A stretch of DNA of 64,000 bases from Candidatus Woesearchaeota archaeon (GCA_019322375.1 JAHWIP010000003.1:6792-70791); one strand, 5' to 3'; shown: positions 8,075-52,498, counted from the first letter of the stretch. The notes: generated by a model not told the origin, from the letters alone. Program-made: numbers and translations.

Positions 8075-8127
8075 ATCAGAATAAATTAAATATATAGAAA
8101 GAAATAATATATAACGAGGTTGGTACT

Positions 8128-32754: not shown

Positions 32755-33042
32755 ATGGATAAAAAAGCCCAGGGTCTGAGTATGAATGTTATTATAATAG
32801 CAGCAATAGCTCTTTTAGTGCTTATCATTCTTGCTGTTCTTATCCTGAGAGCAGGTAAAGGAGTGACTGAAGGTACAGGGTGCAGAGGTGTTGGAGGAAT
32901 TTGTTATTCTAGCTGCACAGACTTGATTGAGGACAGAGGCGGAATGTGGGTTAAGAATCTTCCTAACAGCGGAAAGAATGGTGGCTGTTCAATAGACCAG
33001 GTTTGCTGTGTTGAACTATTAGAAACACCTGAGGATTACTAA
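32755..33042 (+). CDS. Type IV pilin-like protein with a six-Cys module (paralog A)
   Basis: GAGGTGA lies 6 nt upstream. MDKKAQG-LSMNVIIIAAIALLVLIILAVLIL. Module CRGVGGICYSSC...GGCSIDQVCCVE. Confidence 0.7.
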   Translation: MDKKAQGLSMNVIIIAAIALLVLIILAVLILRAGKGVTEGTGCRGVGGICYSSCTDLIEDRGGMWVKNLPNSGKNGGCSIDQVCCVELLETPEDY

Positions 33043-33044
33043 AA

Positions 33045-33335
33045 ATGAAGTTCTTGAATAATAAGAAAGGAGTCCAGCTAACCCTTTCTACAGTGGTTAT
33101 TGCAGTGCTTGTAATCATTGTGCTCATAGTGTTGATAGTGATTTTTACCCAGGGAACAGGCTTGTTCAACATAGGAATAACCAGCTGCGCTGATAGGGGA
33201 GGTAATTGTAATTACGAATCAGCAGATCAATGCGTTGATACTGGCGGCAGTGTTTACAGGTTTGGCAAGTGCACCGACGGGGTTTGCTGTATTCCTAAGG
33301 ACAAGCTTTCAGGGCAAGATGATAATCAAGACTAA
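33045..33335 (+). CDS. Type IV pilin-like protein with a six-Cys module (paralog B)
   Basis: MKFLNNKKG-VQLTLSTVVIAVLVIIVLIVLIV. Module SCADRGGNCNYESADQC...GKCTDGVCCIP. Confidence 0.7.
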   Translation: MKFLNNKKGVQLTLSTVVIAVLVIIVLIVLIVIFTQGTGLFNIGITSCADRGGNCNYESADQCVDTGGSVYRFGKCTDGVCCIPKDKLSGQDDNQD

Positions 33336-35157
33336 TAAGAAGAGGGCTGAGCTCACTATAACCCAAGTAGTACTCATGGTTCTGGGTGTAGTTGTTCTTA
33401 TTGTGCTGCTTTTTGTTTTGAAAATAATACCCACAGGAATTAGAAGTCTTACGAGCTGCTCTGACTGGGGGCAGTGCAGGCCAGGAAATGTTTGCGCACC
33501 AAATGAATACATAAAATTTGAAGCAAAGGATGACTGTCCTGCAAACCATGTGTGCTGCGTGCCTACAACCACAAGGCCAGGACCTCTTCAGGATTTTAAT
33601 GAAAAAGAGCTTGAATACCTGAGAAATGCTATTATCATAAAGCTTAACAATGACCCTACGCCTATAAGCGATGTAGCAAGCCTTAACTTAAAAGTTGATA
33701 CTAATTATACATTTCGTATAAGTATTAATGATAAGCTCACCAAGGATAAAAAAACAAGTGAAAAGCTTGGCCCTTGCGCTGTTTATGTGGTTGACACAAG
33801 AGAAGCAGGCAAGAAATATTTATTAACAAATAAAGGCTGGGACTTGATTCTTTCTGACAAAGAGATTGATTTGAGCGGCATAGAGCTGGCTGAGTGCACT
33901 GAAGAAAGCATTAGGTTAAAAAAATATTCTCCTTCACTAAATGATGTTTACAAGGACTTGGTGCTGTATGTTATTCTTTTGGATAAGGAAGTTGTTGATG
34001 CACTTGAAGTATTAGAAACACACGACCCTGGCTTTGTTAAACTAACTGCTCCTGGGTTTGGCAGTGGAATTAATCTCCCTGATAGGGGGATGGCAGCTTT
34101 TTATAATCTCACAACAATGTACAGCAATGTTGACCACTGGCTTGCTTACAGAGCCATAAGACTTAATGTTGAGCCAGTAGTCCAGATTAGTGGTATGAGC
34201 GGAATATGGGTTGACAAGGACCCAATAACCATATCCTGCCCTGATGTTACCTGCATCAGGTTTGGCTTAAAACTAGTGAAACTAAAAGACAATGATTATT
34301 TACAGTTGGTAGAAGAGTGCAAGAAGCCAGAAGGCTTTAAGTACACTCTTGATTATGTTGCAGGAACAACAACAAAAACAACAGGCATACCATTGAACAT
34401 TAATATTGGAGGTTTCAGGATTCCTCCTCAAAGACAAAAACTCCAGTACATTGTAAGCCAAAAACCAATAACTGTTGTTAATAATAAAGCAGATGTTTTG
34501 ATTGACAGGGCTACCATGCTAAAAACCTTTTACTCAGGAGACCACGAGTTATTAATCGAGGACACTACTTATCTTTGCGTAGAAGCCACCAAGGATGACG
34601 GCTCAAAGGTTCATGGGCTCTCAGAGCAGCCTATTAAAGTGGATGTTTTTCCGCCCATGGTTGACCCTGACAAGGATGTGCAGTTATTTTATCCAGACCC
34701 AGTGATCTCATCAGACATATCAACCCCTTATTATTACAGGAAGTACCCTAAGATTGTTGTTTCTGGATGCTATGATTATGGCCAGAGCGGATGCACTAAT
34801 TATGATTACTATATTCATTCAGGAGAATTTGTTAATCTAAGGTCTCTGACAGCAGAGTGGGAGATAGGAATTGCTTCTTTGATACTAACAGAGGGCTTGA
34901 ATGCCCTGCTCACTTATTTTGCAGAAAAAGATGCTGTCAACACTATATGCCCGTTTATAACCAGCCATTCTTACACAAGAAACACCCGCAATGAGATAAG
35001 AATCCCAAGGCAAGGGCAGGGCATAATATGCATCAGGGTTAGTGACAAAGTAGGCAACAAAGACATTATCTGGAAGGTGCTCTGGACACCTGAAGAGATG
35101 TTCAAGAAAATTATTGCAGAAGGAGTGGCAGAGGCAGAAGAAGCAGTGACTGGATAG
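33319..35157 (+). CDS. Large pilin-like protein: class III-type N-terminus, six-Cys module, ~530-aa unassigned ectodomain
   Basis: The track start 33235 lies inside the previous gene. ATG 33319 gives MIIKTNKKRA-ELTITQVVLMVLGVVVLIVLLFVL, then SCSDWGQCRPGNVC...DCPANHVCCVP. Confidence 0.65.
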   Translation: MIIKTNKKRAELTITQVVLMVLGVVVLIVLLFVLKIIPTGIRSLTSCSDWGQCRPGNVCAPNEYIKFEAKDDCPANHVCCVPTTTRPGPLQDFNEKELEYLRNAIIIKLNNDPTPISDVASLNLKVDTNYTFRISINDKLTKDKKTSEKLGPCAVYVVDTREAGKKYLLTNKGWDLILSDKEIDLSGIELAECTEESIRLKKYSPSLNDVYKDLVLYVILLDKEVVDALEVLETHDPGFVKLTAPGFGSGINLPDRGMAAFYNLTTMYSNVDHWLAYRAIRLNVEPVVQISGMSGIWVDKDPITISCPDVTCIRFGLKLVKLKDNDYLQLVEECKKPEGFKYTLDYVAGTTTKTTGIPLNINIGGFRIPPQRQKLQYIVSQKPITVVNNKADVLIDRATMLKTFYSGDHELLIEDTTYLCVEATKDDGSKVHGLSEQPIKVDVFPPMVDPDKDVQLFYPDPVISSDISTPYYYRKYPKIVVSGCYDYGQSGCTNYDYYIHSGEFVNLRSLTAEWEIGIASLILTEGLNALLTYFAEKDAVNTICPFITSHSYTRNTRNEIRIPRQGQGIICIRVSDKVGNKDIIWKVLWTPEEMFKKIIAEGVAEAEEAVTG

Positions 35158-35229
35158 CAAGTTAACTTAACATCTCCCTTCTTAATAAAACCGAAAGTTT
35201 ATTATAATTCTGTTATGATAGATTAGGAT

Positions 35230-35334: not shown

Positions 35335-35339
35335 AAAGG

Positions 35340-36299: not shown

Positions 36300-36300
36300 A

Positions 36301-37197
36301 ATGAACAAGAAAGCCATTGTGTTTGACAAACTCATGACAGCTGTTCTGATAATCATTGTGCTGGCTGTTTTTATTTTTTTCCTGGTAAAGATAAAAATCC
36401 ATGCCTTAAAAATTGTTGAGGATTCTGAGTGCAAAGCAAGCATTATCAGCCATGCAACTCTTTTAAGGGTGACTGGAGAAGACACAACACCAGACATTCA
36501 CTGCCCTACCAAATATTATACTCTTCCAAAAGAAAGCAATGAAGAAATAAAGCATTATATTGCTGATTCATTAAAGACCTGCTGGGGAACCTGGGGCAAA
36601 GGAGAGCTTCAGTTATTTAACCAGCAAGGCTATTACTGCCATGTGTGCTCTGTGATTGATTTTGATGATAAAACAAAAAAAATACAAGGCCTGAACAATT
36701 ACCTGATTAATACGCCAACAGATAAAGATACCCCTCTCACATACATGGACTACCTCACAGGTTATGCATCTGAAAAAGCAGACCCTGCATTAATACAAGA
36801 GGTTCAGGAAAAAGGTTTTTCAGACACCATACACACTTCAAAGCCTTATGCAGTCATGTTTGTTTATGCCAAAGGAAAAACAGGTGTTAAAGCATTTCTT
36901 GATGGCATGGATGCTCTTGGCCTGGGAACAACAGGAGGAGGAATCACTACAGGGCTTGCACTGGGCTCAGCAGCAGGCATAGGGCTGGCAGCAGCAGGAG
37001 TGGCAAGTGGTGGAGCAGCAATTGTTATAGCAGGAGCAGTCACAGCTGCTGGCGGAGTGATAGGCTATATAACAGCAGATGATACTCACTGGATAGCCCT
37101 TACATTGTTCACAGAATACAATGCTGAAACCCTGAAAAGCATTGGGTGCGAGATAGCCCCTGCAAAGCAGGACAGAAAAACTGATGAAACTGGTTAA
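36301..37197 (+). CDS. Pilin-like protein with a Gly/Ala-rich hydrophobic C-terminal segment
   Basis: MNKKA-IVFDKLMTAVLIIIVLAVFIFFLV. C-terminal GLGTTGGGITTGLALGSAAGIGLAAAGVASGGAAIVIAGAVTAAGGVIGYI is glycine-zipper-like. Confidence 0.65.
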   Translation: MNKKAIVFDKLMTAVLIIIVLAVFIFFLVKIKIHALKIVEDSECKASIISHATLLRVTGEDTTPDIHCPTKYYTLPKESNEEIKHYIADSLKTCWGTWGKGELQLFNQQGYYCHVCSVIDFDDKTKKIQGLNNYLINTPTDKDTPLTYMDYLTGYASEKADPALIQEVQEKGFSDTIHTSKPYAVMFVYAKGKTGVKAFLDGMDALGLGTTGGGITTGLALGSAAGIGLAAAGVASGGAAIVIAGAVTAAGGVIGYITADDTHWIALTLFTEYNAETLKSIGCEIAPAKQDRKTDETG

Positions 37198-37280
37198 AAA
37201 ACTTAATTTGGTGATTTAGTTAAAGCGAAAGCATTAAAAAACACAAAAGCATAAAAAATCTTGAAACAAGAGGTTTTAAC

Positions 37281-37442
37281 ATGAGTTATGGCATGAACCG
37301 TATGAACAAGAAAGCCCAGGAAACAATGAGTCCTGAAGGCGGCACACTAAGAATAATATGGTTTGTGATTGTCTTATTAGTACTTATTATTATTGTTTAT
37401 TTTGTTGCAACAAATTTTAAACTAATCAAACTGCCATTTTGA
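37281..37442 (+). CDS. 53-aa helix-only micro-pilin-like ORF
   Basis: MSYGMNRMNKKA-QETMSPEGGTLRIIWFVIVLLVLIIIVYFVATNFKLIKLPF. Ends 9 nt before the amidase gene. Below the track cutoff. Confidence 0.4.
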   Translation: MSYGMNRMNKKAQETMSPEGGTLRIIWFVIVLLVLIIIVYFVATNFKLIKLPF

Positions 37443-37451
37443 GGTTAAGAA

Positions 37452-38285
37452 ATGAAGCTGATAAATGCTATTGGTGCCATTGTTTTAGGATTGTTTGTAT
37501 TAATTATACTAATCCTGATATTTGTTCCAAACACATTCAAAATTGTTAATAATATCTTTCTTATTATTGGCCAACAATTAGGCTTTAACCCAGCAGTTCC
37601 TGGAGGTGAAGACTATGGCTTTGGAGGGCTTTATGGAAGCACACCATCAACTATTCCAACTGATGCTGAGCCAGAGCGTATTAAAAAAGTCAAAACAAAG
37701 CCAGGCATTCCTGTTGATGAAAAATATTTTGGAGAGCTCTACTCTTATTCCAGGGAAGGAGCACTTGTTGACACCATTGTACTGCACCACACAGGGGATA
37801 ATAAAGCTTCGCAAACATTCAATACTCTGAAAAAAAGAGAGCTTTCAGTGCATTATGTTGTTGACAAGGACGGCACAATATATTACTTGATAGATGAGAG
37901 CACAAAAGGCGCTCATTGCGGTTGCTGCCCGCCAAGCAACCCGACTTGTTGCAAAGCAGGAGAAAACTGTCCTGTTTGCCTGAATGAAGAATTAAGAGAA
38001 ATGAATGCCAAATCAATAGGCATTGAAATTGTTAACACAGGATATGCAGATGATTACTACACTAATGAGCAATATGTTTCAATAGATAAACTGATAAATG
38101 ATATTGCAAGCAGATGGACTGCTATTGCTGTTGATAATGAGCATGTGCTTGGGCATTACCAGATTACACTGGGTAAGTGGGATCCTTCACCTGTTTTTAA
38201 ATGGGCAAGAATACAAGGATTGTCAGGCCACTTAATGCTTGCAGACATAGGAAAAAAAGCACCCTCTGAATACGGCTATACATGA
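37452..38285 (+). CDS. Membrane-anchored N-acetylmuramoyl-L-alanine amidase (Amidase_2 / PGRP fold)
   Basis: N-terminus MKLINAIGAIVLGLFVLIILILIFV. Catalytic-domain pattern IVLHHTG ... SVHYVVDKDGTIY ... AKSIGIEIVNTG ... VLGHYQITLGKWDPSPVF (GH....K.DP..F). Cys-rich insert CGCCPPSNPTCCKAGENCPVC. Confidence 0.7.
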   Translation: MKLINAIGAIVLGLFVLIILILIFVPNTFKIVNNIFLIIGQQLGFNPAVPGGEDYGFGGLYGSTPSTIPTDAEPERIKKVKTKPGIPVDEKYFGELYSYSREGALVDTIVLHHTGDNKASQTFNTLKKRELSVHYVVDKDGTIYYLIDESTKGAHCGCCPPSNPTCCKAGENCPVCLNEELREMNAKSIGIEIVNTGYADDYYTNEQYVSIDKLINDIASRWTAIAVDNEHVLGHYQITLGKWDPSPVFKWARIQGLSGHLMLADIGKKAPSEYGYT

Positions 38286-38370
38286 GTTTGTGACAGAGCA
38301 TTAAAATACACTGAGACACATTAAAATAATAGCAAAGTTTATATACAAAGATTTGCAAGAATTATATGAG

Positions 38371-39081
38371 ATGAAACCCTTGTTTTCAAAGAATAAAAAA
38401 AAGAAAGGCTTGTCAACCCTTGGAACCATTATAGGACTAATACTTTTACTAGCAGTCCTGGCAATCTTTCTTCCGGTTATTCTTCGCGCAGGCAAAACAA
38501 CTGATGAAGTCCCCAAAGACATAATGGACCCTGTCAAGGCATGCCATGGAAAAGAGAGTGGTGAGGAATGTTATCTTGGCGGAATAGCTGGTTTTTGCAG
38601 GGATTTCAGGTGTGTTATAGAGACTTCAGCAAAAAACATGAAAGAATCAATAACTATTTTCAAGACAACTTTCAAGGACAGCATTGAGAATTGCCAGAAA
38701 GATGTAGCCCAGTGCCCTGAGGCAACAAAGGCTCTGGACTTAATGATTGGTTATTTCACAGATGCAGGGCTTGTTGTTCATAGATTAGCCTCAGACAGAG
38801 CAGAGTTCAGGCTATACCAGGAAAAAAACTTTTTAGGTATTGGAGGGCATAAAGCCTCTTTTGTTTTTTACGGCGATACTTGTGTAATAGAGAAGAAAGG
38901 GGATAATGATGTTCCTACATCGGGCAAAAACTTTAAGCTTGGGATCAAAAAAGAAAGCAAAGGTTTTGTAGTATATGACCTTGAAAAAACTGCTGCTGAA
39001 CTAGGCACTTTTATATCTTTCAGGCATCAAACCCAGAATGATGCAACCACCCCGGTCTGTGTTTATTACACTACAGATTAG
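38371..39081 (+). CDS. Type IV pilin-like protein
   Basis: ATG 38371 gives MKPLFSKNKKKKG-LSTLGTIIGLILLLAVLAIFL, then ACHGKESGEECYLGGIAGFCRDFRCV. Confidence 0.65.
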   Translation: MKPLFSKNKKKKGLSTLGTIIGLILLLAVLAIFLPVILRAGKTTDEVPKDIMDPVKACHGKESGEECYLGGIAGFCRDFRCVIETSAKNMKESITIFKTTFKDSIENCQKDVAQCPEATKALDLMIGYFTDAGLVVHRLASDRAEFRLYQEKNFLGIGGHKASFVFYGDTCVIEKKGDNDVPTSGKNFKLGIKKESKGFVVYDLEKTAAELGTFISFRHQTQNDATTPVCVYYTTD

Positions 39082-39154
39082 CAATGCTAAAATAAATTTT
39101 ATTATCATAAAATATTTAATTATTAAAAAAAATTGATTGCAAAGGTGAACTATT

Positions 39155-39808
39155 TTGTTAACAAAATCAAGAAAAGGACTTTCCCTTTTAGGAATGCTTG
39201 GTGGTGTAATCATAGTAGTTGTACTGGTTATTGTTCTAATCAATATTTTCATTAACAGAGGAGCCAAGCCTCTGGAGAACATCACTGGAGAGATAATTAC
39301 CTGCGGAGGACTTGCAGGTGTTATTGGCGGGGGAGAAGGGGTTTGTATAAGCAAAAGCACTCTTTGCGACGGCCCAAAGCTTCCTAATCCTGAGTGCAAG
39401 GCTAGCAATCCTGACAAGCCTTATTGCTGTTTTAAACAAGCAGAGGGTGCTGAAGGCCCTCCTGGTTCTGGCCCGACGGCTTGTGTTAAGGATGTTGACC
39501 CCTGGGAACCTGTAATTGTTGAAGACGATTATGTTTGCGCTTCTAGTAAGGAGGCGTGCGAGCAGACTATGAATTTTGTTAATGTTCTGAATGAATGTGC
39601 TCAATTTAGTGAAGGTTGTGAATGCAAGGATGAAGTAGAAGGAATTGAGCACCCTTGTGAAGGCAATCTTAAATGGGCTCTTTTTGGCCTTGATAAATCT
39701 GAGCCTAAACATGAAGTTGTTATGAAATGCTATCCTGCTGTTAAGGAATGCGAGGATTCAAATGAATGTGAGCGTTGTGTTCCAAACCATTTTGAATGTG
39801 CAGAATAA
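39155..39808 (+). CDS. Type IV pilin-like Cys-rich protein with a six-Cys module
   Basis: TTG start with AAAGGTGA 6 nt upstream. LTKSRKG-LSLLGMLGGVIIVVVLVIVLINIF. Module TCGGLAG...GVCISKSTLC...PECKASNPDKPYCCFK. Confidence 0.6.
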   Translation: MLTKSRKGLSLLGMLGGVIIVVVLVIVLINIFINRGAKPLENITGEIITCGGLAGVIGGGEGVCISKSTLCDGPKLPNPECKASNPDKPYCCFKQAEGAEGPPGSGPTACVKDVDPWEPVIVEDDYVCASSKEACEQTMNFVNVLNECAQFSEGCECKDEVEGIEHPCEGNLKWALFGLDKSEPKHEVVMKCYPAVKECEDSNECERCVPNHFECAE

Positions 39809-39872
39809 TAACTCTGTTAATTCTTCCCCACCGAAACAAATTTATACTTATTAAGCAAGTTTCTTATGTATT

Positions 39873-41027
39873 ATGGCTTGGATGAATAAAAAAGGCGGTG
39901 AAAGACAGATTGGACTTAGCGAACTTACGCTTTATGTGTTTGTCATTCTGCTTATAGTTGTCTTATTTATTGTTAGCTATAGGTTTATCGGAGCTTTTCT
40001 CAGAGGAGGAGTTGATAAAGACACTGAGTCTAATTTTGTGTCACTGGCAGAGAACCTTGAGTTAATGATTGAGAAAGACGCAGGGTTTGAATACCAGACC
40101 ATGATTTTTTATATGAAAGAAAAGCATTTTGTGTTTGGCTTTACATCCAAGCAGGCTCTTTCCTCTTCTCCAGCAAAGCATTTTATGCCTGAGAAATGCA
40201 ATGAGCACTCATGCCTTTGCCTGTATAAAGAACCTGATGATGTAGCAGATGACAAGCCTGTCAAGTGCATATCTTTTGGGCACAAGGTTATTTTTCATGG
40301 CTATGACTTAAAAAAAGTGTCTGCTGCTCAGCTGGTTTATCCTGACCTAGGAGCAGAGCTGGGTGCGCGTGAGCAAGGAGAATCTTATTATTTATCTGAT
40401 TATCCTGAAACTATTTCTTTTTATATAGAAGGCTTGTTTATTGGCCCTTCACTAGACAATCCTCATGACCTTTACCTGGAAAAAATAGTTGCTAATAACA
40501 GGGTGCATGTTTTTGTGACTCCTGGCCTTAAGCAGGAAATGATAGAGACAAGGATTGAACTGTTATCTCCCTGCCCTTTTGATTCTGATGAAGAATGCAT
40601 GGGCAAGAGAAGAAACTCTGTTCTGGGCAGTAATGATTATTGTTTTTATGATGAGAGCCAGGCTAAGTGCTTGTTAAAAAAAGATGTGGATGCCTGTTCT
40701 TTCTCAGACAGAATTACACAGCCCTGTCTTTGCGGCTCTACATTTATAGACCCAGACACCAGGACAGAAGAAACCTATTGTTATCAAAAATCTGATAAAA
40801 GGATTTTTGTCCTTCCATTTGACTGCGATTCAGAGGAATTAAGAGAAAAAAAATGCCTTGCTTACTGCAGGGCAATCACTGATACAGAGGACTGCGACAC
40901 AAGAGAACAGGATTACTGTGATAAAGACCCTTGCGAGTTTGCTTCTAAAGAAAAGCCGTGCGAAGTGCGCCCATTAGGCAAAAAAACTTATTGTGCTTCT
41001 TACTCAAGGGATTACAGCATGGATTAA
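39873..41027 (+). CDS. Pilin-like, very Cys-rich ectoprotein
   Basis: MAWMNKKGGERQIG-LSELTLYVFVILLIVVLFIV. Many Cys in the C-terminal two thirds (e.g. DCDSEELREKKCLAYCRAITDTEDCDTREQDYCDKDPCEF). Confidence 0.65.
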   Translation: MAWMNKKGGERQIGLSELTLYVFVILLIVVLFIVSYRFIGAFLRGGVDKDTESNFVSLAENLELMIEKDAGFEYQTMIFYMKEKHFVFGFTSKQALSSSPAKHFMPEKCNEHSCLCLYKEPDDVADDKPVKCISFGHKVIFHGYDLKKVSAAQLVYPDLGAELGAREQGESYYLSDYPETISFYIEGLFIGPSLDNPHDLYLEKIVANNRVHVFVTPGLKQEMIETRIELLSPCPFDSDEECMGKRRNSVLGSNDYCFYDESQAKCLLKKDVDACSFSDRITQPCLCGSTFIDPDTRTEETYCYQKSDKRIFVLPFDCDSEELREKKCLAYCRAITDTEDCDTREQDYCDKDPCEFASKEKPCEVRPLGKKTYCASYSRDYSMD

Positions 41028-41113
41028 TAATAGTTGCTTGGATTAATAATAATTATTAGTAATTGTTCTAAAAACCTAAATCTTTTTAAACTCGTTTATC
41101 AACAATTTAAGTT

Positions 41114-41596
41114 ATGAGTTTTTATGATTTTAATAACAAGAAAGCCAGGAGCATGATTGCAACTTCTTTTTATGTATTATTTGGCTTGATGCTGGGAGCC
41201 TTTTTTGTGATAGCTGTTCTTGGAAGAGTTAAGGATGCTGTTGGTGATTCTGCTTATCATAAAAAGTTTTATTCCAGGGACCTGGCCTTGCTTGTTGATG
41301 CCTTGCATGCCAGCAATGGAAAGTTTGTTGTTGATTATGATGTTAATCTTCCAGACAACATGCTCCTGGACTTTGGTCTTGAGCCTGGAGCAGTCATCTT
41401 AACAGACCGCTCTGACACACTCATGGATAACAGGCATAAAACTGCTTTTTTGTTTGGGCATAATGATTATGTAAAAATAATTCCTGTCACAATTGACAAG
41501 AACATGCTTAAATTGTTAGTGGTGGCTGATAACAACACCATTACATTTGAAGAGAAAGGGATGGATGATTTAAGTACAAATGATAAAGAGGAGTGA
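41114..41596 (+). CDS. Pilin-like protein
   Basis: MSFYDFNNKKA-RSMIATSFYVLFGLMLGAFFVIAVLG. Confidence 0.55.
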   Translation: MSFYDFNNKKARSMIATSFYVLFGLMLGAFFVIAVLGRVKDAVGDSAYHKKFYSRDLALLVDALHASNGKFVVDYDVNLPDNMLLDFGLEPGAVILTDRSDTLMDNRHKTAFLFGHNDYVKIIPVTIDKNMLKLLVVADNNTITFEEKGMDDLSTNDKEE

Positions 41597-41629
41597 TTTA
41601 AGTATAAATGATTTAAGCAAAGAATAAGG

Positions 41630-42169
41630 ATGAGAATAATAAAAAAGAGGCTGAGCCTGAATAACAAAAAGGGGTTGGGAACTGAGGAGTGGCTTGAACT
41701 TCTGCCTTACATAGTGTTAACAGTGGTTGTAATGGTGGCTATTTTTGCCCTGATAAACCTTTTTGTTAATATTTCTGTTGATGTTAAGCCTGTTCAAAGG
41801 GAAGTTCTTTTCTACAGGCTGATGTATGCTCCTAACTCAATTATGTATATGGATAATCTTACTGGCAGGGTTCACCCTGGTGTTATTAGCTGGGATAATT
41901 TTACCAACCAGACCCTTGACAAATCTATTGCTTATGATTATGAAAGGCATATATCTGCAAAATTGATATTATATAACCTGGAAAAAGAGCCAATCAAAAC
42001 AGCTTATCTTAATGGGCTGTGGTTTAACCGCTTAGAGCCTTTGGCCAGGAGCAGGATTAAGGGTGCAGGCAGTGCAGAGCTCTACACCAAGAAAATCCCT
42101 GTTGTTTACAGGAGAAATGATGTGAACAGGGCAGGCTATCTTAAAGTTGAGATTATCATTCCAAACTAA
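41630..42169 (+). CDS. Pilin-like protein
   Basis: MRIIKKRLSLNNKKG-LGTEEWLELLPYIVLTVVVMVAIFALINLF. Confidence 0.55.
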   Translation: MRIIKKRLSLNNKKGLGTEEWLELLPYIVLTVVVMVAIFALINLFVNISVDVKPVQREVLFYRLMYAPNSIMYMDNLTGRVHPGVISWDNFTNQTLDKSIAYDYERHISAKLILYNLEKEPIKTAYLNGLWFNRLEPLARSRIKGAGSAELYTKKIPVVYRRNDVNRAGYLKVEIIIPN

Positions 42170-42184
42170 CAGCGAGTGATTTGA

Positions 42185-42853
42185 ATGAGCAGTTTGATTA
42201 ATTCAAGAAAAGGCATGAAAACCATTGTGACAATATTATCAGTTGTCTTGTTAGTATTCATATTCATAATATTTATTTTTCTTTTCAGGCTTGGCGCCAG
42301 GAACAAGGCAGAAAGCATAGAATCAGATTTTTCCTCTGTAAGAACAGAGTTTTTGCTTAAAACCTTTTTAAGAACACCAGCTGTTATTAGTGATGATTAC
42401 CCTGTTGAAGACTTGTTCCCTGGCATAGGAGAAGGCATTACCAATGCAGACCTGGTATCATGGACATGTAGTAAGGATAAAGACAGGAATTACAAGACCT
42501 TGAAAAACTCAATAAACACTTTTTTTGATGAGGCATATGAAGATGACTGGGAAGCATGGATAATCTATTCTAATCCTAAAGTAAAAAAGAAGGGCTTTGG
42601 GCACAAGAGTTATCTTGAAGGGATTGAGAAAAGCATAAACCGCTTGCTAACAGCAGGACAGCTGGCTTTGCTAGCAGCCAAATCATCAGACCCAGCCAGC
42701 AGGGGATTAATCTTCAAGCTTTTTATAACTCCTTATCGTGAAGCAGGCTTTGGCTCCCAGGTGGTTCCTTGCCCAGACGGAGAACTAGCCCAGATAATGC
42801 TTTACTCCCACACAGCATTTATTGAAATAAAACACCTGAAAGGCTTAACATAA
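42185..42853 (+). CDS. Pilin-like protein
   Basis: MSSLINSRKG-MKTIVTILSVVLLVFIFIIFIFLF. Confidence 0.55.
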   Translation: MSSLINSRKGMKTIVTILSVVLLVFIFIIFIFLFRLGARNKAESIESDFSSVRTEFLLKTFLRTPAVISDDYPVEDLFPGIGEGITNADLVSWTCSKDKDRNYKTLKNSINTFFDEAYEDDWEAWIIYSNPKVKKKGFGHKSYLEGIEKSINRLLTAGQLALLAAKSSDPASRGLIFKLFITPYREAGFGSQVVPCPDGELAQIMLYSHTAFIEIKHLKGLT

Positions 42854-42865
42854 GATAAAATAAAA

Positions 42866-45800
42866 ATGGATAAAGTAAAACTGAGATTAAAAAACAGAAA
42901 AGCACAGGTTTACCCGCTTTTTGTAGTGGTCTTTACAATAGTGGCCTTGACAACAGCCCTTATTGGCTTGAGCAATGCAAAAGAGGTTACTGATTTATCT
43001 GGCAGGGAAATGCTTATCGGCACCAAGCAATCAGCTGTTTTTGCATCTCTTCAAGACGCAGATGCTGTTAGTTTATTCATAGAGCAGGCAGCAGAATTTG
43101 CAGGCCAGCAAGCCCTGGATAAAATAAGAAAATCATGCTTTTTTGGAGTTGATGAGGAACAAGAAGTTGATGAGTGGGAGTCTCCATGCGGCAAGTTTGT
43201 TTATCCTCTTTGGAGCACTAATGAAAATCTTTGCCTTCCTGATTGTGAAACAGCTTTTGTCAATGCCTTTAACAAGGATTTTTTAAGCCGAACAAACAAG
43301 TATTATGAGTTCACAAACATAGAGCTGCCTATTTCTTATAACATGAGCCTGGAAATACATGACAATCATTTTTTTGTTCATGGAACCTCTGACACAGAAC
43401 TAAGGATTAATGTGGTTGATATTCAGAGCAGGATTAAGTCTCCCCTGGCAATAGCCCAGACTTATGAGGAAGGCAGGCTTATCTGGCCTGTTGATTACTC
43501 TGACCACACAATCACCTCTTGCTTTGGTGAAAGAGATGTTGTTGGGGGGAGCAAATACCATCCTGCTGTTGATATCCGGGCTCCAAAAGGAACACCAGTG
43601 CTGGCAGCTGCTTTAGGAAAAGTGATTCTTACTGACCCTTGCTGGGGAAGAATTGTTATTAATCATGGCTCTGGCTTAAGCACAGAGTATCTTCACTTGG
43701 AAAAAATTGATGTTAAGGTTAATGATGATGTGGTGCAGGGACAAAGAATAGGAACTTCTGGCAGCAATGGCTGTGACACAAGAGAGTTTGTTCCGCACCT
43801 GCATTTTGGGGTTATATATCAAGGTGTTCAGTCACCCATGCATTATAAAGGGCAGGAAATAGTTTTGAGCAACAACCATATCCAGCCCATGTGCTTGATT
43901 GAAAAAGGGTATGCTGCTAAGCCAGAAAGCAACTGCAACCAGCTTGTGAACACAGACTTAGACAAGATTTGTGAATTGTATAATCTGCCAGAAGAATTTT
44001 TTGAATCATCAGAATCATCAAAGCCATCAGAGCCATCAGAACCAGACCAAGACACTTCTTCTGAAGAAAGTGCTGATGCAGAGAATGCTGGTGCAGAAAG
44101 TGTTAATGCAGAAAGCACTGAGCTGGATTATTCTCTGGCACAGGCTCCTGGCAGCTATGCTTTTAAACCATCTTTTACCTTGAGGGTTAACAAGAAAATA
44201 GAAAACCCTATTGAGCCAGTAACAGAGTGGTTTGAGAACACCTGGAACGAGTGCGAGGATGACCCTTGGAAATGTTTAAGAGAAAAAATGAGTGAGTTTA
44301 ATGAGCAGGACTATGATTACAAGCTCATGTTTGCTGACAGGTGCGAGGAAGGCTATCACTTGTTCTATGACATACTGGAGTTTTTTGAGGACTGCTTTTC
44401 AAACCAGAAGTATGGGTGCTCATGCGAGTTTAATTTATCAGATGCTTTTTCAATAACTGACTTGCGAATAGTTTTTGACACACAAGCAAACACAGCCTCT
44501 CTTTTTTCCAAGCAGGGAGATAAGCCTGGTGATGAATATGAATTAATTGATTCATACCAGTTCTATTATGGAAGCATAACCAAGCCAGCCCCTGCTTCTC
44601 CTTATAGGTATTATGTGTATCAGCTTGATTATGATGATTATGGGGAGCTGGAAAATGCAGAGCTTATGCAAATGAAGTCATTGCTTGATGTATTTGATGT
44701 TGTGCCTTTTTTTGATTACAAAGAACTAAGACTGGCAAAGCCAGGAGAGGCTGAGCAAGGATATTTTGTGAACACAGAAACAATTCAGTGCAAGTACAAG
44801 AAGAACAAGTTCAGGCTGTGTGCAAAGCCAGCACAGGAAAGAGAAGACTTGTTCCCTATAAGGTTTGCTTTTCACTTAAAAGACAAGCCTCCTGAGCCTG
44901 TTAAAAAAGGAGATGTGGAAATTATAGAGGTGGAGGAGAGTTCTGAGTCAGATGTTGACAAGGTAATGCAGGCAGCAGGCTTTCTAGGAACCATATTCCC
45001 TCCTCTAGGCTACTTGTTCACAGCAATTAATATTCTCAGTGTGTTGGAAGACTTTAAACCAAGAAAGTTCGAGGTAATAGTTGATGTTCCTCTTGACAAG
45101 GATGGCAAACCCCTGGATGTTGCTGGCTATGAAGTTTATTGCAGTGATTACCTGACAAACATCCTGCCAGTGGATGTTTTGGATAAATATAATCCAAGTC
45201 ATTTTGTTGTGATGGCTAATGATGAGATGAATAAAAAAGTAAGCCAGCTAGACCAGTATGTTAAGAAGAACCCTTACACAGACTTTCTGAATCTTGAGAG
45301 CTGTGATGTGCCTGTGAGCAAGTTCACAGGAGAAACCATTCTTGTGCCTGGAATCAAAGGGGTTGTTAAGGACGGTAAAATGGTTTTCAACCTTCATAAA
45401 TGCGGGGACTTGGCAATAATTATAGATAAACTAATAAGAAAAGACTACTGTGTATCACTAATACCTGTTGACAAGAATGGCAACAAGATAATGGAGCATG
45501 CTGTGAGCAACTGCGCGCAAACCAATTCACTGCTTGACCTGGTTATTAGTGAGATGATAGAGGAACAGCTAGGAGAATTTATTCCTGCAAGCCTTATACC
45601 TGATAATTTAAAGCCTTATATCAAGCTGCCTGACACAAGCGATATTGTTAATGCAGTAACAGGGGAAGGCAGTTTTGACATGATAGACATTGTTAATCTT
45701 GACAAGCTGGACGCAGACATAAAAAATTATCTTGAGGAATTCGTGGTTGGAACTATTAATGAAGACATAATAGGCACTTCTGTTGTTAATTCTATTGATG

Positions 45801-46639
45801 ACTTAAAGCTCTGGGAAAAACAAACAGTGCTTAACACCCTGTCAAACCAGATAAAAAATGATGATGCAAAAACCTTGTTTGATGCCTTTGTAACAGGAGA
45901 AGGTGTTGCTGAGTCTGCCAAGCGCATGGCTTATGAAAAAGGAGTAGGATATATAGACCAGACAAAAACACCTGAGATACTTAAGGAGATAGCCAAAGGA
46001 GAAGACCCTAAAAGCCTTGCATACCAGGAACTGGTAAAAGCAGCTGAGAAAGAGCTCAGCACTGACGAGAAAAAACAGGCTCTGCTGGAGATAGCCAGGA
46101 GCAGCAGTGGAAGAGAGGTAAAAGATAAGATAATAGAAAAAGCCCTTGAAAAAGGATGCGGCGAGTCATATGGAATAAGTGCAGAGCAGGCAATCAACTG
46201 CCTTGACAATGAAGAGGTAGAAAATATTTATCACAAAGTTCTGACAGACTACAGCACACCAGACAAGGTAAAACAGTTTTTGCTTGACAAGGCAATTGAC
46301 AAGTTTGATGAAAAAACACCAGACGTGCTAAAAGAGATTGTTCTGAAAAGAGACTTTAAAGGAGCAGCAAAGGACATGCTTGAGAAAGAGCTTGACAAGC
46401 TTCCAGACGCTGTTAAGAAAGAGTTTATTACTGATATACTTGAAGGCAGGCTTCCAGATGTTGAGTACTTGCAGCAGGAACTAGTGAAAATGATACCAGC
46501 AGTAAACAATGAATATGTGAATGCCCTGCTAAAAGACGGCAATGTTAAAAACCTGATAGAATCAACCCTTAAATCAGAGATAGAAAAACAACTAGGCTCA
46601 TTCTTCTCAGATGAATGCGTGGCAATTAATAAGGATTGA
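42866..46639 (+). CDS. Giant (1257-aa) pilin-like protein with an M23 (LytM-type) metallopeptidase domain
   Basis: KNRKA-QVYPLFVVVFTIVALTTALIGL N-terminus. M23 motifs YHPAVDIRAP (HxxxD) and PHLHFGV (HxH) at about nt 43478-43841. Acidic S/E linker, an internal hydrophobic segment at about nt 44972-45046, and a K/E-rich repetitive helical C-terminus. Confidence 0.7.
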   Translation: MDKVKLRLKNRKAQVYPLFVVVFTIVALTTALIGLSNAKEVTDLSGREMLIGTKQSAVFASLQDADAVSLFIEQAAEFAGQQALDKIRKSCFFGVDEEQEVDEWESPCGKFVYPLWSTNENLCLPDCETAFVNAFNKDFLSRTNKYYEFTNIELPISYNMSLEIHDNHFFVHGTSDTELRINVVDIQSRIKSPLAIAQTYEEGRLIWPVDYSDHTITSCFGERDVVGGSKYHPAVDIRAPKGTPVLAAALGKVILTDPCWGRIVINHGSGLSTEYLHLEKIDVKVNDDVVQGQRIGTSGSNGCDTREFVPHLHFGVIYQGVQSPMHYKGQEIVLSNNHIQPMCLIEKGYAAKPESNCNQLVNTDLDKICELYNLPEEFFESSESSKPSEPSEPDQDTSSEESADAENAGAESVNAESTELDYSLAQAPGSYAFKPSFTLRVNKKIENPIEPVTEWFENTWNECEDDPWKCLREKMSEFNEQDYDYKLMFADRCEEGYHLFYDILEFFEDCFSNQKYGCSCEFNLSDAFSITDLRIVFDTQANTASLFSKQGDKPGDEYELIDSYQFYYGSITKPAPASPYRYYVYQLDYDDYGELENAELMQMKSLLDVFDVVPFFDYKELRLAKPGEAEQGYFVNTETIQCKYKKNKFRLCAKPAQEREDLFPIRFAFHLKDKPPEPVKKGDVEIIEVEESSESDVDKVMQAAGFLGTIFPPLGYLFTAINILSVLEDFKPRKFEVIVDVPLDKDGKPLDVAGYEVYCSDYLTNILPVDVLDKYNPSHFVVMANDEMNKKVSQLDQYVKKNPYTDFLNLESCDVPVSKFTGETILVPGIKGVVKDGKMVFNLHKCGDLAIIIDKLIRKDYCVSLIPVDKNGNKIMEHAVSNCAQTNSLLDLVISEMIEEQLGEFIPASLIPDNLKPYIKLPDTSDIVNAVTGEGSFDMIDIVNLDKLDADIKNYLEEFVVGTINEDIIGTSVVNSIDDLKLWEKQTVLNTLSNQIKNDDAKTLFDAFVTGEGVAESAKRMAYEKGVGYIDQTKTPEILKEIAKGEDPKSLAYQELVKAAEKELSTDEKKQALLEIARSSSGREVKDKIIEKALEKGCGESYGISAEQAINCLDNEEVENIYHKVLTDYSTPDKVKQFLLDKAIDKFDEKTPDVLKEIVLKRDFKGAAKDMLEKELDKLPDAVKKEFITDILEGRLPDVEYLQQELVKMIPAVNNEYVNALLKDGNVKNLIESTLKSEIEKQLGSFFSDECVAINKD

Positions 46640-48091: not shown

Positions 48092-50200
48092 TTATCTTAC
48101 AACCCTGTCAAGACCAGCTTTTATAAAGGGCTCTTTTAATTTGTTTAATGCTTTTAATTCAATCTGTCTTATTCTTTCCCTGGTAACTTTGAATTCTATA
48201 CCAACTTCGTCCAAGGTATGGAAATTATACTTACCAATTCCAAAGCGCATGTAAAGAATTTTAATTTTTCTTTTACGGTCAGGATCCTTTTTAAAAGTGT
48301 CATGGATAACTTTTCTGACCTGATAACCTACTAATGATTGTGCAGCAGCATGTTCAGTATCAGCTTTTGGATCCTCAACAAGCTCACCTATTTCAACCTC
48401 TACTTCTTCTCCTATTGTTGTTGATAGTGAGATTGGTTTTTCAGCCCATTTTTTATACTTCTCAACTCTTTCCTCAGCAACATTCATTTCTTTAGCAACT
48501 TCTTCTGTTGTTGGCTCTCTGCCTAACCTGCCAAATAATTTCCTGGCAATTCCCAAGTACTTGTTTATTTTTTCCACTGAATGCACAGGAGTCCTGATAG
48601 TCCTTGCCTGGTCTGCTATAGCCCTTGTTATTGACTGTTTAATCCACCAAGTAGCATATGTTGAAAATTTATACCCTCTTCTGTATTCCCAGCTGTCTAT
48701 TGCTCTTAGAGCTCCCATGTTTCCCTCCTGAATCAGGTCAGTAAATTCCATACCCCTGTGCTGGTATTTTTTTGCTATACTCACAACCAGTTTTGTATTT
48801 GAACTTGCAAGCTCATTTTTGTTAGATATAAGCTCATCATGAAGCTTTTCTATTTCAGGGCTAACAGGGTCAAGATGAGGAAATATTGATTTGTAAGTTT
48901 CATAAGTTTTTTTCCAGTATTTTTTTTTGAATTTAAGTTTGCTAAGAAGCTTTTTCAGTGCAAAATCTCCTTTTTCTTTGGCATTATGAAAGTTCTCTAT
49001 AAATTCTATTTTTTCCCGAGCAGTCTTCTCATAACCTTTCCAAAGTCGTACTATTTCATCCGGGTGATTTATTTTAATAGCCTTTTCTATATCTTTTACA
49101 ACATAATCAACCAGGCATTCTGGCTTCTTATTGTCGCCTTGCAGGGAGCGCTCTTCAGACAATCCATTGTACAAGAAATTCCTGCTCTCAATTGTTTTGA
49201 ACTCATTAAACAGTTCTGTTAAGTATTTTGTTACAAACAAGTATTTTCCTAGAAAAGATTTTAGGGCTTTCTCCCTTCTTTTCTCAGCCTTTTCAAACTT
49301 TTTTTTGAAGACGTTCACATCTTCACAACAAATAATATCTTCAAGGTCTTTTCCCTTGTTTTCAAGGGTTTCATCCAAGCTTTCACCATGTTTTTTATTC
49401 AAGGCTTCCTGGGCTTCCAGGGCTTCATTAATATCCTTTCTTATTTTATTTAAGATATATTTTTTCTCAATAATATGCTTGAATATTTCTTCTCTTTTCT
49501 GCTCTATTTTTTTTCCAAAAGCATATTCCTGCTCTCTTGTTAGCAAGGCGTGCTTGCCCATGGAACTTAAAATAAAACTTGTTTCACTGCCAATATATGT
49601 CTTTCTCAAGTCTACTTTATCCTCCTCAAGGTCAGAGTACTCTTTTATCAAGAACTTATAATTATCATTAAAAATCTTATTTTTGTTTTCCAGAGCAGTT
49701 CTGTGCATGTCAAGAAGCAAGTTATAATAGAACTTTCTAACATCTGCCCTGTCATATTTTTTTCCATAGTCTAACTTAACAGGGTCGACATACCTGCTTA
49801 GTATAATGTCATGTTTTTTCATGTATGGGTCTCCGAATTCTTTTGGAGTCTTGGTTTCAATCTCTCTTTTTTTTTGCATCAGGTATGCCATAAATCCCCT
49901 TAACGAGATATAACTGTCTCTGTTTATATAGTCCAGGCAGAAAAAAGGATTTTTCTTAGCAAGCTTGATAAGAGCGCTGTTTTCAATATGAAATACTTTA
50001 GCAAGGTCAGCTGTTCTGAGCCTTTGGGAGTATCCAACTTCTTGTTTTAGAACAGAACCTTTTTGTATCAGGTCAAGAAAGAATTTTGAATCCATCTCTA
50101 TGTTTTCCCAGACAGAGGCTCCGAATTTTTCTTTGATTTGAGCAGGGCGCAGGTATATACCTTTGCTCTCTTCTAGAAAAGCATGGGCTGCTTCTTGCAT
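48092..50200 (-). CDS. Bacterial-type sigma-70 family protein (regions 1.2, 2, 3, 4) with a long N-terminal extension
   Basis: [53 protein letters not shown] (regions 2.1-2.4), [14 protein letters not shown] (1.2-like) and [18 protein letters not shown] (4.2 HTH). Confidence 0.8.
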
Positions 50201-50266: not shown

Positions 50267-52498
50267 TTAAACAATTTGGTATTCTTGCCTTACCTTCTTG
50301 TTTTTTTCAATGATAGGGATGAGCTGCTCTACAGCGCTTTTATGAAAAGCCTTTAAGTAGGTGTCTGTTGATGTCATTTTTAAGAAAGGAAAATCAGGGT
50401 CTGTGCTCATTCTGCTAAGCTGTTTGGGCTGAATCCTCATGCCAGTTGCTTCATATATATAATTTGAAGCTTGATGCACTCCAATTGTTTCTTTCTTGTC
50501 TTTTTTTATTAGTTCTATTTTTTCATCAAAGAACTTGGTAATAAAGATTTCTTCAAAACCGTTTTTTACAAGATAAACAGGCATGGTATTGCCTAGTTTT
50601 TCTATGTAGCTTATTTTCTTTTCAGGGTTATTGAACTCGTATCTTCTGAGATTCTTGATTAGTTTGGTTTCTATATGCTGGAACCGGGTTACACTTGTCC
50701 TTGCAAAGTTCTCTCTTATTATCTCAACCAGAAGTTTGTGCCCCCTAATTTTCTGAAGAATTTCAATTGCTTCAGCTCCCTTGTAAGTTTCGCTTGGTCT
50801 TTGATTAAAGAGACCTGCTTCTGCAAGCCTTCTGAAAACCAAAAGATTTCTTCCAGTGATTTCTGAAAGTTCTGACCCAGGGTACAGCCTTAAAGGATAA
50901 ATCTCTAGCATGTCTGGCCTGGTTTCAAGCCTTAAATCACCAATGCCTTCAAAAATCTGGGCAAGAGTCCTGCTGTTTTTAGATATAAGATTGTCATCTT
51001 CTTCAAAATACATTTCATCCAGCATGTCTATGAAACGCTTCATACCAAACTCTTTGAACTGCTCTGCTCTGTGCTTTGCAATAGCATACCCACAGTCCCT
51101 GCGAAATTCTGCTTTGAGGTGAGCCAAAAGATTTCTATCATCCTCAATTCTTTTTTCCTTATTTATGTAAATAACAGCACCATCTTCCTCTGTTTCCATA
51201 TATTTAGCAAAAGGGCCGGAAACTGATGGTTCTGCCAGCTCAATTTTAGTTTTTTTGTCTAATCTTTTTTCAACCCAGTCTGTTGCTTCTTTAAGAAAAT
51301 TTCTTAGCTTTGCTTCTTCTTTTTTTTCCTGCTCTCTCTTTATGTTTGTATAGATTCCGCGAGCAATATTTTTTATATGACTTTTTAGTTCTAAAAGCTC
51401 CTCAGTCCCTTTTTGTATGCGCTGCTTGTCAAATCCAAGATCTGGCTTTAATGATTCTACTTCTATAAACCCATATGTGCGTGCTGCAAAACCCAGAGCC
51501 ATTTCTTCCAGCTTGACAATTCCTCCTTCGCCCAGGGTTCTTCCAACCACAAGATGAATTCCACGCACATCCTTTTCTATTGTTTTATGCGGAAGATAAT
51601 ATATATGCCCTCTAATAGGACCGCATTTTTCTAGGGCATCCTTGATTTCATAAACAATTGCTTCTTTTGGAATAGGGGTTTCTATCTCTATATCATTCAT
51701 TTTTACTCTAAAAGCAGGGCTGAGCTGGAGTGCAAACTTTTGTTTAATCAAATCAGCAAGCTTGTCTGTTTCAATTGTGATTTTTCCTTTTTTAGAACCC
51801 AAAGGCTTCATAATGATTTCTGTGCCATGTTTTTTTTGGTCAGTTATTCTTTCTTCACTATAACTAACCTTTCCCCATAAGCCCTGATTAATTATTTTTT
51901 CTAAAGAACCATACTCTTCCTCAACATCCTCTATAAGCAGACTGGTGTTTAACTCAGGTATGGTGTGAGGGGATTCTCTTTTATCAAGAACTCTTTTGAC
52001 AATCCGCTCAATATATTTATCTTTTTGCTTCTCATTAAGATTCATCTCTTCAAACTTAGGGCTGGTTAAGATGGAGTGCTGAATGGTTTTTCTTACAAAC
52101 ACCTCTTTGGTATGATATTTTTTTCCTTTTCCTTTTTTTACTGTGCTCATTTGATAGCCAAAACAAAGGTATCTTATGAACTCCTTGCCTACTCCTGCAT
52201 CACCTATTTTTAGTCTTCCAGTGCGGGTTCTGGGGTTAAGCTTCTTAATATTAGTGCCATAAGTATTGAAGTGCTTAAGGTCTTCAAGATTCATGCCTTC
52301 CCCATTATCTCTTATGAGAAGACTTTTATTTTTATCATCAATTATTATTTCCACAAGAGGAGCATCTGCATCCCAGGCATTATCAATGCCCTGTATTATT
52401 GCTTCATAAGGGCTTAGAAATAGGGATTTGCCAAGATTCTCATGAAACTCTTTTGAGATTCCTCTCCTTACTTTAACAGTTTTCTTTGTCATCAACAC
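50267..52498 (-). CDS. GHKL-superfamily (HATPase_c_3 / MORC-like) ATPase with a large unassigned C-terminal region
   Basis: N-box IDNAWDADA, G1 box IRDNGEGM and G2-like GDAGVGKEF in the first ~110 aa. 743 aa in total. Confidence 0.65.
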   Translation of the reverse strand: MLMTKKTVKVRRGISKEFHENLGKSLFLSPYEAIIQGIDNAWDADAPLVEIIIDDKNKSLLIRDNGEGMNLEDLKHFNTYGTNIKKLNPRTRTGRLKIGDAGVGKEFIRYLCFGYQMSTVKKGKGKKYHTKEVFVRKTIQHSILTSPKFEEMNLNEKQKDKYIERIVKRVLDKRESPHTIPELNTSLLIEDVEEEYGSLEKIINQGLWGKVSYSEERITDQKKHGTEIIMKPLGSKKGKITIETDKLADLIKQKFALQLSPAFRVKMNDIEIETPIPKEAIVYEIKDALEKCGPIRGHIYYLPHKTIEKDVRGIHLVVGRTLGEGGIVKLEEMALGFAARTYGFIEVESLKPDLGFDKQRIQKGTEELLELKSHIKNIARGIYTNIKREQEKKEEAKLRNFLKEATDWVEKRLDKKTKIELAEPSVSGPFAKYMETEEDGAVIYINKEKRIEDDRNLLAHLKAEFRRDCGYAIAKHRAEQFKEFGMKRFIDMLDEMYFEEDDNLISKNSRTLAQIFEGIGDLRLETRPDMLEIYPLRLYPGSELSEITGRNLLVFRRLAEAGLFNQRPSETYKGAEAIEILQKIRGHKLLVEIIRENFARTSVTRFQHIETKLIKNLRRYEFNNPEKKISYIEKLGNTMPVYLVKNGFEEIFITKFFDEKIELIKKDKKETIGVHQASNYIYEATGMRIQPKQLSRMSTDPDFPFLKMTSTDTYLKAFHKSAVEQLIPIIEKNKKVRQEYQIV

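Follow-up and report, generated by a model that had tools for sequence, protein, structure and literature searches.

Large extracellular murein hydrolases of the SLT type that are specific to Woesearchaeota and Pacearchaeota have been published, and they are read there as tools for attachment to, or degradation of, bacterial cell walls (PMC8204110, PMC9723730). A secreted M23 hydrolase of Halogranum salarium, Woldo, has experimentally demonstrated bactericidal activity, and M23-bearing peptidoglycan hydrolases have been noted in Nanoarchaeia (PMC12352652, 2025). The present study concerns a protein of 1,257 amino acids (aa), referred to here as the giant protein, whose gene lies in a stretch of 64,000 nucleotides (nt) from Candidatus Woesearchaeota archaeon, a DPANN archaeon (GCA_019322375.1 JAHWIP010000003.1:6792-70791). 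The whole stretch, called the window, has a G+C content of approximately 37% and carries archaeal genes for RadA/Rad51, an RPA-type single-strand-binding protein, a tRNA-splicing endonuclease, and TrmB. With a probability of roughly 0.6, the giant protein is predicted to be an extracellular, N-terminally anchored murein endopeptidase of Woesearchaeota that has a class-III-like N-terminus and cuts bacterial peptidoglycan.

As described in PMC8204110, fam00969 resembles the giant protein in its occurrence in DPANN archaea, in the very large size and extracellular location of its members, and in its bacterial-type peptidoglycan-degrading domain. However, the giant protein lacks the SLT/GH23 domain by which that family is recognized, with no SLT match in Pfam, and carries an M23 head instead. 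SLT-bearing proteins of Nanoarchaeota share the N-terminal and mid domains of the giant protein, and fam00969 itself is compared here by its description. In kind, the giant protein is an M23-headed relative of the published DPANN murein hydrolases. The original prediction knew of no archaeal M23 endopeptidase fused to a pilin-type anchor, which overstated the novelty, because DPANN murein hydrolases had been published (PMC8204110, PMC9723730, PMC12352652) and the GenBank entry for this protein was already named an M23 peptidase. At the keyword level, these three papers make no mention of a prepilin-like N-terminal domain, a cargo slot, a hydrolase-associated mid domain, or a 14-gene pilin-like cluster with a swappable hydrolase. 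Woldo is likewise archaeal, has a bacterial-type M23 domain, and acts outside the cell on bacterial peptidoglycan, as is predicted for the giant protein; it has a Tat signal, two PG_binding_1 domains, and a stand-alone gene (PMC12352652). In the giant protein, by contrast, the anchor is class-III-like, a known binding domain is absent, the scaffold of approximately 900 residues is novel, and the gene lies in a multigene cluster.

Some bacterial, archaeal, and phage systems are comparable in part. In modular type IV pilins, such as PilB and PilC of Streptococcus sanguinis, and in the sugar-binding proteins of the Sulfolobus bindosome, a prepilin-type signal displays a functional module. These modules are adhesins or binding proteins of far smaller size, with known assembly genes, and, to our knowledge, they are not cell wall hydrolases. 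The likeness to the giant protein lies in a prepilin-type signal and helix displaying a module, whereas processing and assembly are putative here. The membrane-anchored Gram-positive conjugation proteins PrgK, TraG, and TcpG and phage virion lysins such as phi29 gp13 are, like the predicted giant protein, large structural components of machines that cross the envelope; they combine M23 with SLT, amidase, CHAP, or muramidase domains and open a local hole in murein, with the hydrolases of Gram-positive conjugation (type IV secretion systems) cutting the producer's own wall. Their sequence relation to the giant protein is confined to the catalytic domain, and genes for transfer or virions are absent here. 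In its architecture, the giant protein is analogous to modular pilins, conjugation hydrolases, and phage lysins and not a member of any of them.

The giant protein and its M23 domain

The giant gene (42866..46639, plus strand) is a single unbroken open reading frame (ORF) with an ATG start, and its product is 100% identical over 100% of the length to the NCBI protein P0001. Nine further homologues, drawn from independent assemblies, are full length and collinear with it, with 39 to 56% identity and 99% query coverage. A join of several genes by assembly or frameshift error, which the original prediction had feared, is therefore excluded, and the giant protein is the product of a real single gene. 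It contains 26 Cys residues, many of which are invariant across the homologues, and this fits an extracellular protein. On the basis of the alignment, local hidden Markov models (HMMs), and an AlphaFold model of aa 425 to 1257 with a mean predicted local distance difference test (pLDDT) score of 67.7, seven parts were distinguished, in the order N-terminal domain, M23 domain, hypervariable linker, mid domain, low-confidence linker, beta-rich domain, and helical tail. They are listed below together with two shorter segments, and the slash marks the putative cut.

42866..42973 (+), class-III-like signal (aa 1 to 13, ending ...NRKA/Q) and hydrophobic helix (aa 14 to 36), from conservation and hydropathy
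42866..43477 (+), conserved N-terminal domain (aa 1 to 204), from the alignment, shared by remote relatives
43478..43990 (+), M23 metallopeptidase domain and a short Cys-containing extension ending in YNLP, from Pfam, motifs, and PDB profiles
43991..44143 (+), acidic Ser/Glu/Pro linker (aa 376 to 426), from the alignment, a hotspot of cargo insertion
44144..44917 (+), mid domain (aa 427 to 684), alpha+beta with 8 conserved Cys residues, ending in KDKPPEP
44972..45046 (+), internal hydrophobic segment containing Pro and Gly, AAGFLGTIFPPLGYLFTAINILSVL (aa 703 to 727), within the low-confidence linker
45065..45535 (+), beta-rich domain (aa 734 to 890), with an FN3/Ig-like beta-sandwich as the sole fold match for the C-terminal model
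45536..46639 (+), K/E-rich all-helical tail (aa 891 to 1257), found in the narrow family only

The M23 assignment made in the original prediction was upheld by the profile search proposed with it. Pfam PF01551 matches aa 231 to 321 with an E value of 1.8e-21 and a score of 76.5 bits, against a cutoff of 28.7, and the HxxxD and HxH hallmarks lie at the predicted places, in YHPAVD (H232 and D236) and PH311LH313F, with EYLH277L between them. The zinc-binding and catalytic residues H232, D236, H277, H311, and H313 are invariant in all ten proteins aligned. A profile search of the PDB returned M23 proteins only, with Pgp3 (6jmx, 2.7e-19) as the best match, followed by DipM, ShyA, and lysostaphin, and the M23 motifs of the giant protein align with those of 6jmx. 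At the level of these motif residues, the active site of the domain is complete.

Downstream of the M23 domain, the acidic Ser/Glu/Pro linker is present as predicted, and its extent is now placed at aa 376 to 426 (nt ~43991 to 44143). The second hydrophobic stretch, AAGFLGTIFPPLGYLFTAINILSVL, lies exactly at the predicted coordinates, but its suggested role as a membrane or insertion element did not hold. Its hydropathy maximum is 1.56 (1.4 to 1.7) and falls below 1.4 in 3 of the 10 homologues, only P712 and G715 are conserved, several homologues have charged residues in it, and its pLDDT is below 50. Because the segment is weakly hydrophobic, poorly conserved, and modeled with low confidence, a second transmembrane helix at aa 703 to 727 was ruled out. 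The tail, which is rich in K, E, L, and D and predicted to be all helical (pLDDT of 76 to 89), agrees with the predicted K/E-rich helical C-terminus, but the supposed array of repeated units was rejected in favor of a lone two-copy duplication of aa ~994 to 1076 (nt 45845 to 46093) and 1111 to 1193 (nt 46196 to 46444), with a Smith-Waterman score of 87, compared with 34 +/- 6 for shuffled sequences (z of ~9). No solved or viral structural relatives were found for the tail. Together, the mid, beta-rich, and helical parts may serve as a spacer, a wall-binding module, or a docking module.

A conserved scaffold with exchangeable hydrolases

An exhaustive profile search with aa 425 to 1257 as the query against 1.84 billion representatives yielded only 71 proteins at an E value of 1e-3 or lower, 19 of which were at 1e-30 or lower. 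Separate profile searches with the N-terminal domain and the mid domain returned one fragment each and were uninformative, so that the survey of the family draws on the exhaustive search. Named members of the family are labeled "Nanoarchaeota archaeon" or "archaeon," with one named as an SLT-domain protein of a Nanoarchaeota archaeon, and the close relatives in six GTDB genomes come from metagenome-assembled genomes of Woesearchaeota or Nanoarchaeota. In the narrow family, our own HMMs recover the order N-terminal domain, cargo, mid domain, beta-rich domain, and tail, and the cargo differs from protein to protein. After the YNLP that ends the M23 part, orthologue P0005 has an Amidase_2 domain, and P0006, P0008, P0009, and P0010 have an SLT domain, giving M23+SLT proteins; SLT replaces M23 in P0019, P0024 is without M23, and P0026 and P0028 lack a catalytic domain altogether. 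The cargo states across these relatives are thus M23, M23+Amidase_2, M23+SLT, SLT alone, and none.

In the wider superfamily, only the N-terminal and mid domains are held in common. The N-terminal domain, with its motifs IGxKQ, QDADxxxLFxxQAA, and CGKYxYPxWS...CxPDC, also occurs in remote relatives bearing other hydrolases, and the mid domain, which is the signature of the superfamily, is always located C-terminal to peptidoglycan-hydrolase domains. A Pfam census of 57 remote members found SLT in 19, M23 in 14, Amidase_2 in 9, 3D in 5, NlpC/P60 in 3, and VanY in 2, and some single proteins combine Amidase_2, M23, and SLT. In most of the remote members, the N-terminus is of a similar type, such as MNRKGQ with a hydrophobic stretch after it. 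On this domain evidence, the giant protein is a scaffold protein in a DPANN-restricted superfamily with swappable predicted murein hydrolases.

The fourteen-gene cluster and the partner hydrolase

The giant gene closes a tightly spaced cluster of 14 genes on the same strand (32755 to 46639), in which the order is the 95-aa protein, the 96-aa protein, A, B, C, the 53-aa protein, the Amidase_2 protein, E to J, and the giant protein. The genes that precede it are as follows.

32755..33042 (+), small pilin-like protein of 95 aa, first gene; MDKKAQ followed by GLSMNVIIIAAIALLVLIIL and then a small Cys-rich domain; NCBI MBW2990152, hypothetical
33045..33335 (+), second small pilin-like protein of 96 aa; NNKKG followed by VQLTLSTVVIAVLVIIVL
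33319..35157 (+), cluster protein A of 612 aa; NKKRA followed by ELTITQVVLMVLGVVVL; no known domain; orthologues in L001, L005, and L007
35322..36299 (+), cluster protein B of 325 aa; NKKAG followed by LSTLQTIIIILLIF; paralogue of C
36301..37197 (+), cluster protein C of 298 aa; MNKKA followed by IVFDKLMTAVLIIIVL; Gly/Ala-rich hydrophobic C-terminal part
37281..37442 (+), mini protein of 53 aa; NKKAQ motif and hydrophobic stretch; position kept in L001 (55 aa) and L003 (43 aa)
37452..38285 (+), N-terminally anchored N-acetylmuramoyl-L-alanine amidase (Amidase_2) of 277 aa; Pfam E value of 4.3e-25
38353..42853 (+), cluster proteins E to J of 242, 217, 384, 160, 179, and 222 aa; [KR][KR][GA] and a hydrophobic N-terminus in each

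For the ten genes looked up (within KY348_00435-00495), the gene starts match those in GenBank, where all except the amidase are hypothetical, and searches of Pfam, NCBIfam, and PHROGs returned nothing for the accessory cluster proteins. All of the cluster products except the amidase (13 of 14) start with [KR][KR][GA] and then a stretch of high hydrophobicity. When ORFs of 100 aa or more are counted, the motif is present in 10 of 11 in the cluster and in 8 of 47 in the remainder of the window (Fisher p = 8e-6), and three more small ORFs beyond this set bear it in the cluster. The 95-aa protein is a candidate major subunit. The long hydrophobic segment rich in Gly and Ala at the end of cluster protein C, GLGTTGGGITTGLALGSAAGIGLAAAGVASGGAAIVIAGAVTAAGGVIGYI, may form a second region associated with the membrane. 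Immediately upstream of the cluster, a toxin-antitoxin-like HEPN/nucleotidyltransferase pair (31196-32199, minus strand) is transcribed in the divergent direction.

Gene order and motif are kept in L001, L003, L005, and L007 and in the visible parts of L009 and L010, although the giant protein of L010 is merely 29% identical. The orthologues of E to J retain their order in L001, L003, L005, L007, L009, and L010 and partly in L011. In L011, a remote locus from a soil metagenome, a 1,249-aa protein with Amidase_2, M23, and SLT domains closes a run of 15 genes, all 15 of which have R-[KR]-G and a hydrophobic N-terminus. BLAST finds counterparts there of the small pilin-like protein and of B, C, A, G, H, and I; cluster protein C is 29% identical to L011_2978 (E value of 1e-27), and the homologue of the 95-aa protein is L011_4275. 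Downstream of the cluster, the close relatives have genes for RPA, a CARDB protein, and YdjM, and the loci that are long enough also show RadA farther down; the cluster is therefore chromosomal. Locus L007 (CAYGYA010000038.1), which is labeled "uncultured Methanosarcinales archaeon," contains a complete Woesearchaeota-type cluster followed by RPA and is probably misbinned or mislabeled.

The amidase has the motif residues H112/H113, H235, K242, and D244 and is 48% identical to the amidase fused in the orthologue P0005. Because this kind of enzyme occurs as a fused domain in P0005 and as a separate protein in the window, a functional link of amidase and giant protein is supported, and the pairing drawn in the original prediction gains further from their common conserved cluster. 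The amidase slot of L001 (4790-5512) and L003 (4819-5508) keeps approximately 60 N-terminal residues and has a GH73-like glucosaminidase domain instead, with subthreshold matches in both (E values of 3.6e-4 and 0.02). By these comparisons, the enzyme at this fixed position is swapped between relatives.

The conservation of the cluster bears on the idea that it derives from a virus or conjugative element, as a remnant or as cargo, in which the giant protein would be a wall-breaching lysin associated with a virion or with transfer, comparable to M23-containing tape-measure, hub, or internal proteins of phages or to the hydrolases of Gram-positive type IV secretion systems. The M23 domain does match families of phage lysins, tape-measure proteins, and hub proteins (PDB 9m7n, 9k2v, and 8kea), and there is a faint LPD14 match (E value of 0.15). 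However, the PHROG matches are confined to the M23 domain, none of the nine accessory cluster proteins scanned (all but the amidase and three small ORFs) has a PHROG match, and no relatives were found in IMG/VR or BFVD. The position of the cluster is, moreover, fixed between housekeeping genes in many genomes at 29 to 57% identity, and no integrase, capsid, or terminase was found. We consider this explanation very improbable; a viral or mobile-element origin was rejected, as there are no IMG/VR relatives and the PHROG matches cover M23 only.

The N-terminus of the giant protein

The N-terminus of the giant protein reads MDKVKLRLKNRKA/QVYPLFVVVFTIVALTTALIGL, with the slash as above, and the 19-residue Kyte-Doolittle maximum is 2.47; in all 10 homologues, the hydrophobic helix has values of 2.1 to 2.7. 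Within the motif, A13 is invariant and N10, K11, and K12 are each conserved in at least 90%, so that the conserved class-III form is NKKA/Q. A basic N-terminus ending in [KR]-[GA] is followed by approximately 20 hydrophobic residues, as in the class-III pattern. The class-III-like N-terminus named in the original prediction is therefore present, has a prepilin-like shape, and keeps its motif in all orthologues, and a prepilin peptidase probably cuts after RKA. Neither Pfam nor NCBIfam gave a pilin match in the giant protein, and an AlphaFold model of aa 1 to 380 (mean pLDDT of 46) predicts a long N-terminal helix, with the globular part being unreliable. A second group of same-strand ORFs in the window (26-1891 and 4441-9744, plus strand; starts at 26, 4441, 5472, 6085, and 8128) also has [KR][GA] and hydrophobic N-termini with no Pfam domains and may be another pilin-like set.

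Proposed function and alternatives

According to the proposed function, the giant protein would be exported, with its signal cut after RKA by a prepilin peptidase, and its hydrophobic helix would anchor it to the membrane or to a pilus-like fiber made up of the small cluster proteins, within the fiber or at its tip. When the archaeon meets a bacterium, the M23 head would cut the peptide cross-links of the wall and the partner amidase would strip stem peptides off the glycan. This could open the wall locally, allowing attachment or parasitism, or release wall fragments as food. The companion enzymes bear on the target of this activity. SLT, GH73-like, Amidase_2, 3D, NlpC/P60, and VanY domains act on murein, which contains N-acetylmuramic acid, and are not known to act on pseudomurein. 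That the companion domains are all murein specific argues for bacterial murein as the target rather than pseudomurein or protein.

The same domains, present in both the scaffold family and the cluster (Amidase_2, SLT, GH73-like, 3D, NlpC/P60, and VanY), make it improbable that the M23 domain is aimed elsewhere, either at an archaeal host such as a methanogen, with its envelope of protein or pseudomurein, or at proteins generally in the manner of LasA. Such a target would agree with the cleavage of proteins by some M23 enzymes, including LasA, with the occurrence of 3it5 and 6ik4 among the PDB relatives, and with the lack of a detected peptidoglycan-binding domain. It would also agree with the proposal that Woesearchaeota are partners of methanogens (PMC5994134).

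An autolytic role, in which the enzymes would remodel a murein-like wall of the archaeon itself or let an envelope structure of its own pass through such a wall, is highly unlikely. We know of no archaea with murein, and the window contains no mur genes or penicillin-binding protein genes. Moreover, the literature reads such enzymes as aimed at bacteria (PMC8204110, PMC9723730, PMC12352652). In favor of this role, bacterial pilus and secretion machines often have dedicated M23 or SLT enzymes, such as Mpg of Neisseria (PMC11980366), and some bacterial-type pathways occur in DPANN archaea (PMC8204110).

Several results weigh against the proposed function of the giant protein as an N-terminally anchored murein endopeptidase. 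The protein has no recognized peptidoglycan-binding domain, and its C-terminal 830 residues are without informative structural relatives. The model of its N-terminal domain is too poor to reveal a pilin fold. Neither the Pfam lists of the window nor the neighborhood of the cluster in any locus contains a T2SSE assembly ATPase, a T2SSF platform protein, or an A24 prepilin peptidase; an assembly ATPase and platform protein are absent from the window and, in L001, L003, and L011, from the region up to 10 kb from the cluster, and they may be located elsewhere in the genome. In addition, the K-K-G/A motif of several cluster proteins is separated from the hydrophobic stretch by 6 to 10 polar residues, which is atypical of prepilin sites.

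In an alternative account, the N-termini are uncleaved Sec anchors of tethered surface proteins, there is no pilus-like assembly, and the giant protein is a plain signal-anchored ectoenzyme whose M23 domain would still digest bacterial murein. The absence of pilus machinery adjoining the cluster in any locus, the atypical spacing between motif and helix in G, H, and I, the plain anchor of the cluster amidase, and the poor model of the N-terminal domain speak for this account. It is opposed by the retention of G or A after two basic residues in 13 of the 14 cluster proteins and in orthologues down to approximately 25% identity, which is more than a mere positive-inside anchor would need. The strong enrichment of the motif in the cluster relative to the rest of the window, and the major-pilin size and shape of the two proteins of approximately 95 aa, also oppose it. 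We regard the plain anchor as rather unlikely, yet it remains a serious rival, because no pilus machinery lies near the cluster and polar residues stand between motif and helix. A more ambitious extension of the murein endopeptidase function, in which the 14 genes would build a DPANN-specific pilus-like organelle whose largest, terminal subunit carries interchangeable murein hydrolases and breaches bacterial walls, is possible but tentative, and we would not presume it to be correct.

Other genes in the window

Downstream of the cluster, further genes of the window were observed. A 702-aa bacterial-type sigma-70 factor (48092-50200, minus strand) has regions 1.2, 2, 3, and 4 above the Pfam thresholds and a long N-terminal extension; sigma-70 genes in Woesearchaeota are already reported (PMC8204110). 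Next to it, a 743-aa protein (50267-52498, minus strand) carries a GHKL-type ATPase domain (HATPase_c_3) at its N-terminus. An 829-aa protein (58923-61412, minus strand) with an N-terminal hydrophobic anchor, a Peptidase_C25 (gingipain-like) domain, and a metal-binding motif of the MopE type is another probable surface protease. A 1,157-aa ORF (54265-57738, plus strand) has no Pfam match, and a 1,173-aa ORF occupies the matching place in L007. The CARDB protein (52677-53210, plus strand) and a 131-aa protein (53740-54135, minus strand) share an (A/L)IVAIVAIVA N-terminal anchor, which recurs in neighboring proteins of L005, L006, and L009 and may be a separate lineage-specific sorting signal.

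Implications

The 14-gene pilin-like cluster, the swappable hydrolase cargo, and the conserved scaffold domains go beyond the original prediction. At least two uncharacterized conserved domains, the N-terminal domain and the Cys-rich mid domain, have been defined here, both of which travel with peptidoglycan hydrolases. The exchange of wall-cutting heads between lineages is a pattern typical of arms-race weaponry. The hosts and way of life of Woesearchaeota and Pacearchaeota are an open question, with none cultured with a known partner, and the published murein hydrolase genes, seen in isolation, were a hint of interaction with bacteria, which this locus makes into a defined and testable system. 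The cluster would also be a genomic marker of DPANN lineages that probably attack bacteria or use them as food, and, if it builds the pilus-like organelle, it would mark those Woesearchaeota and Pacearchaeota whose hosts are bacteria and not archaea.

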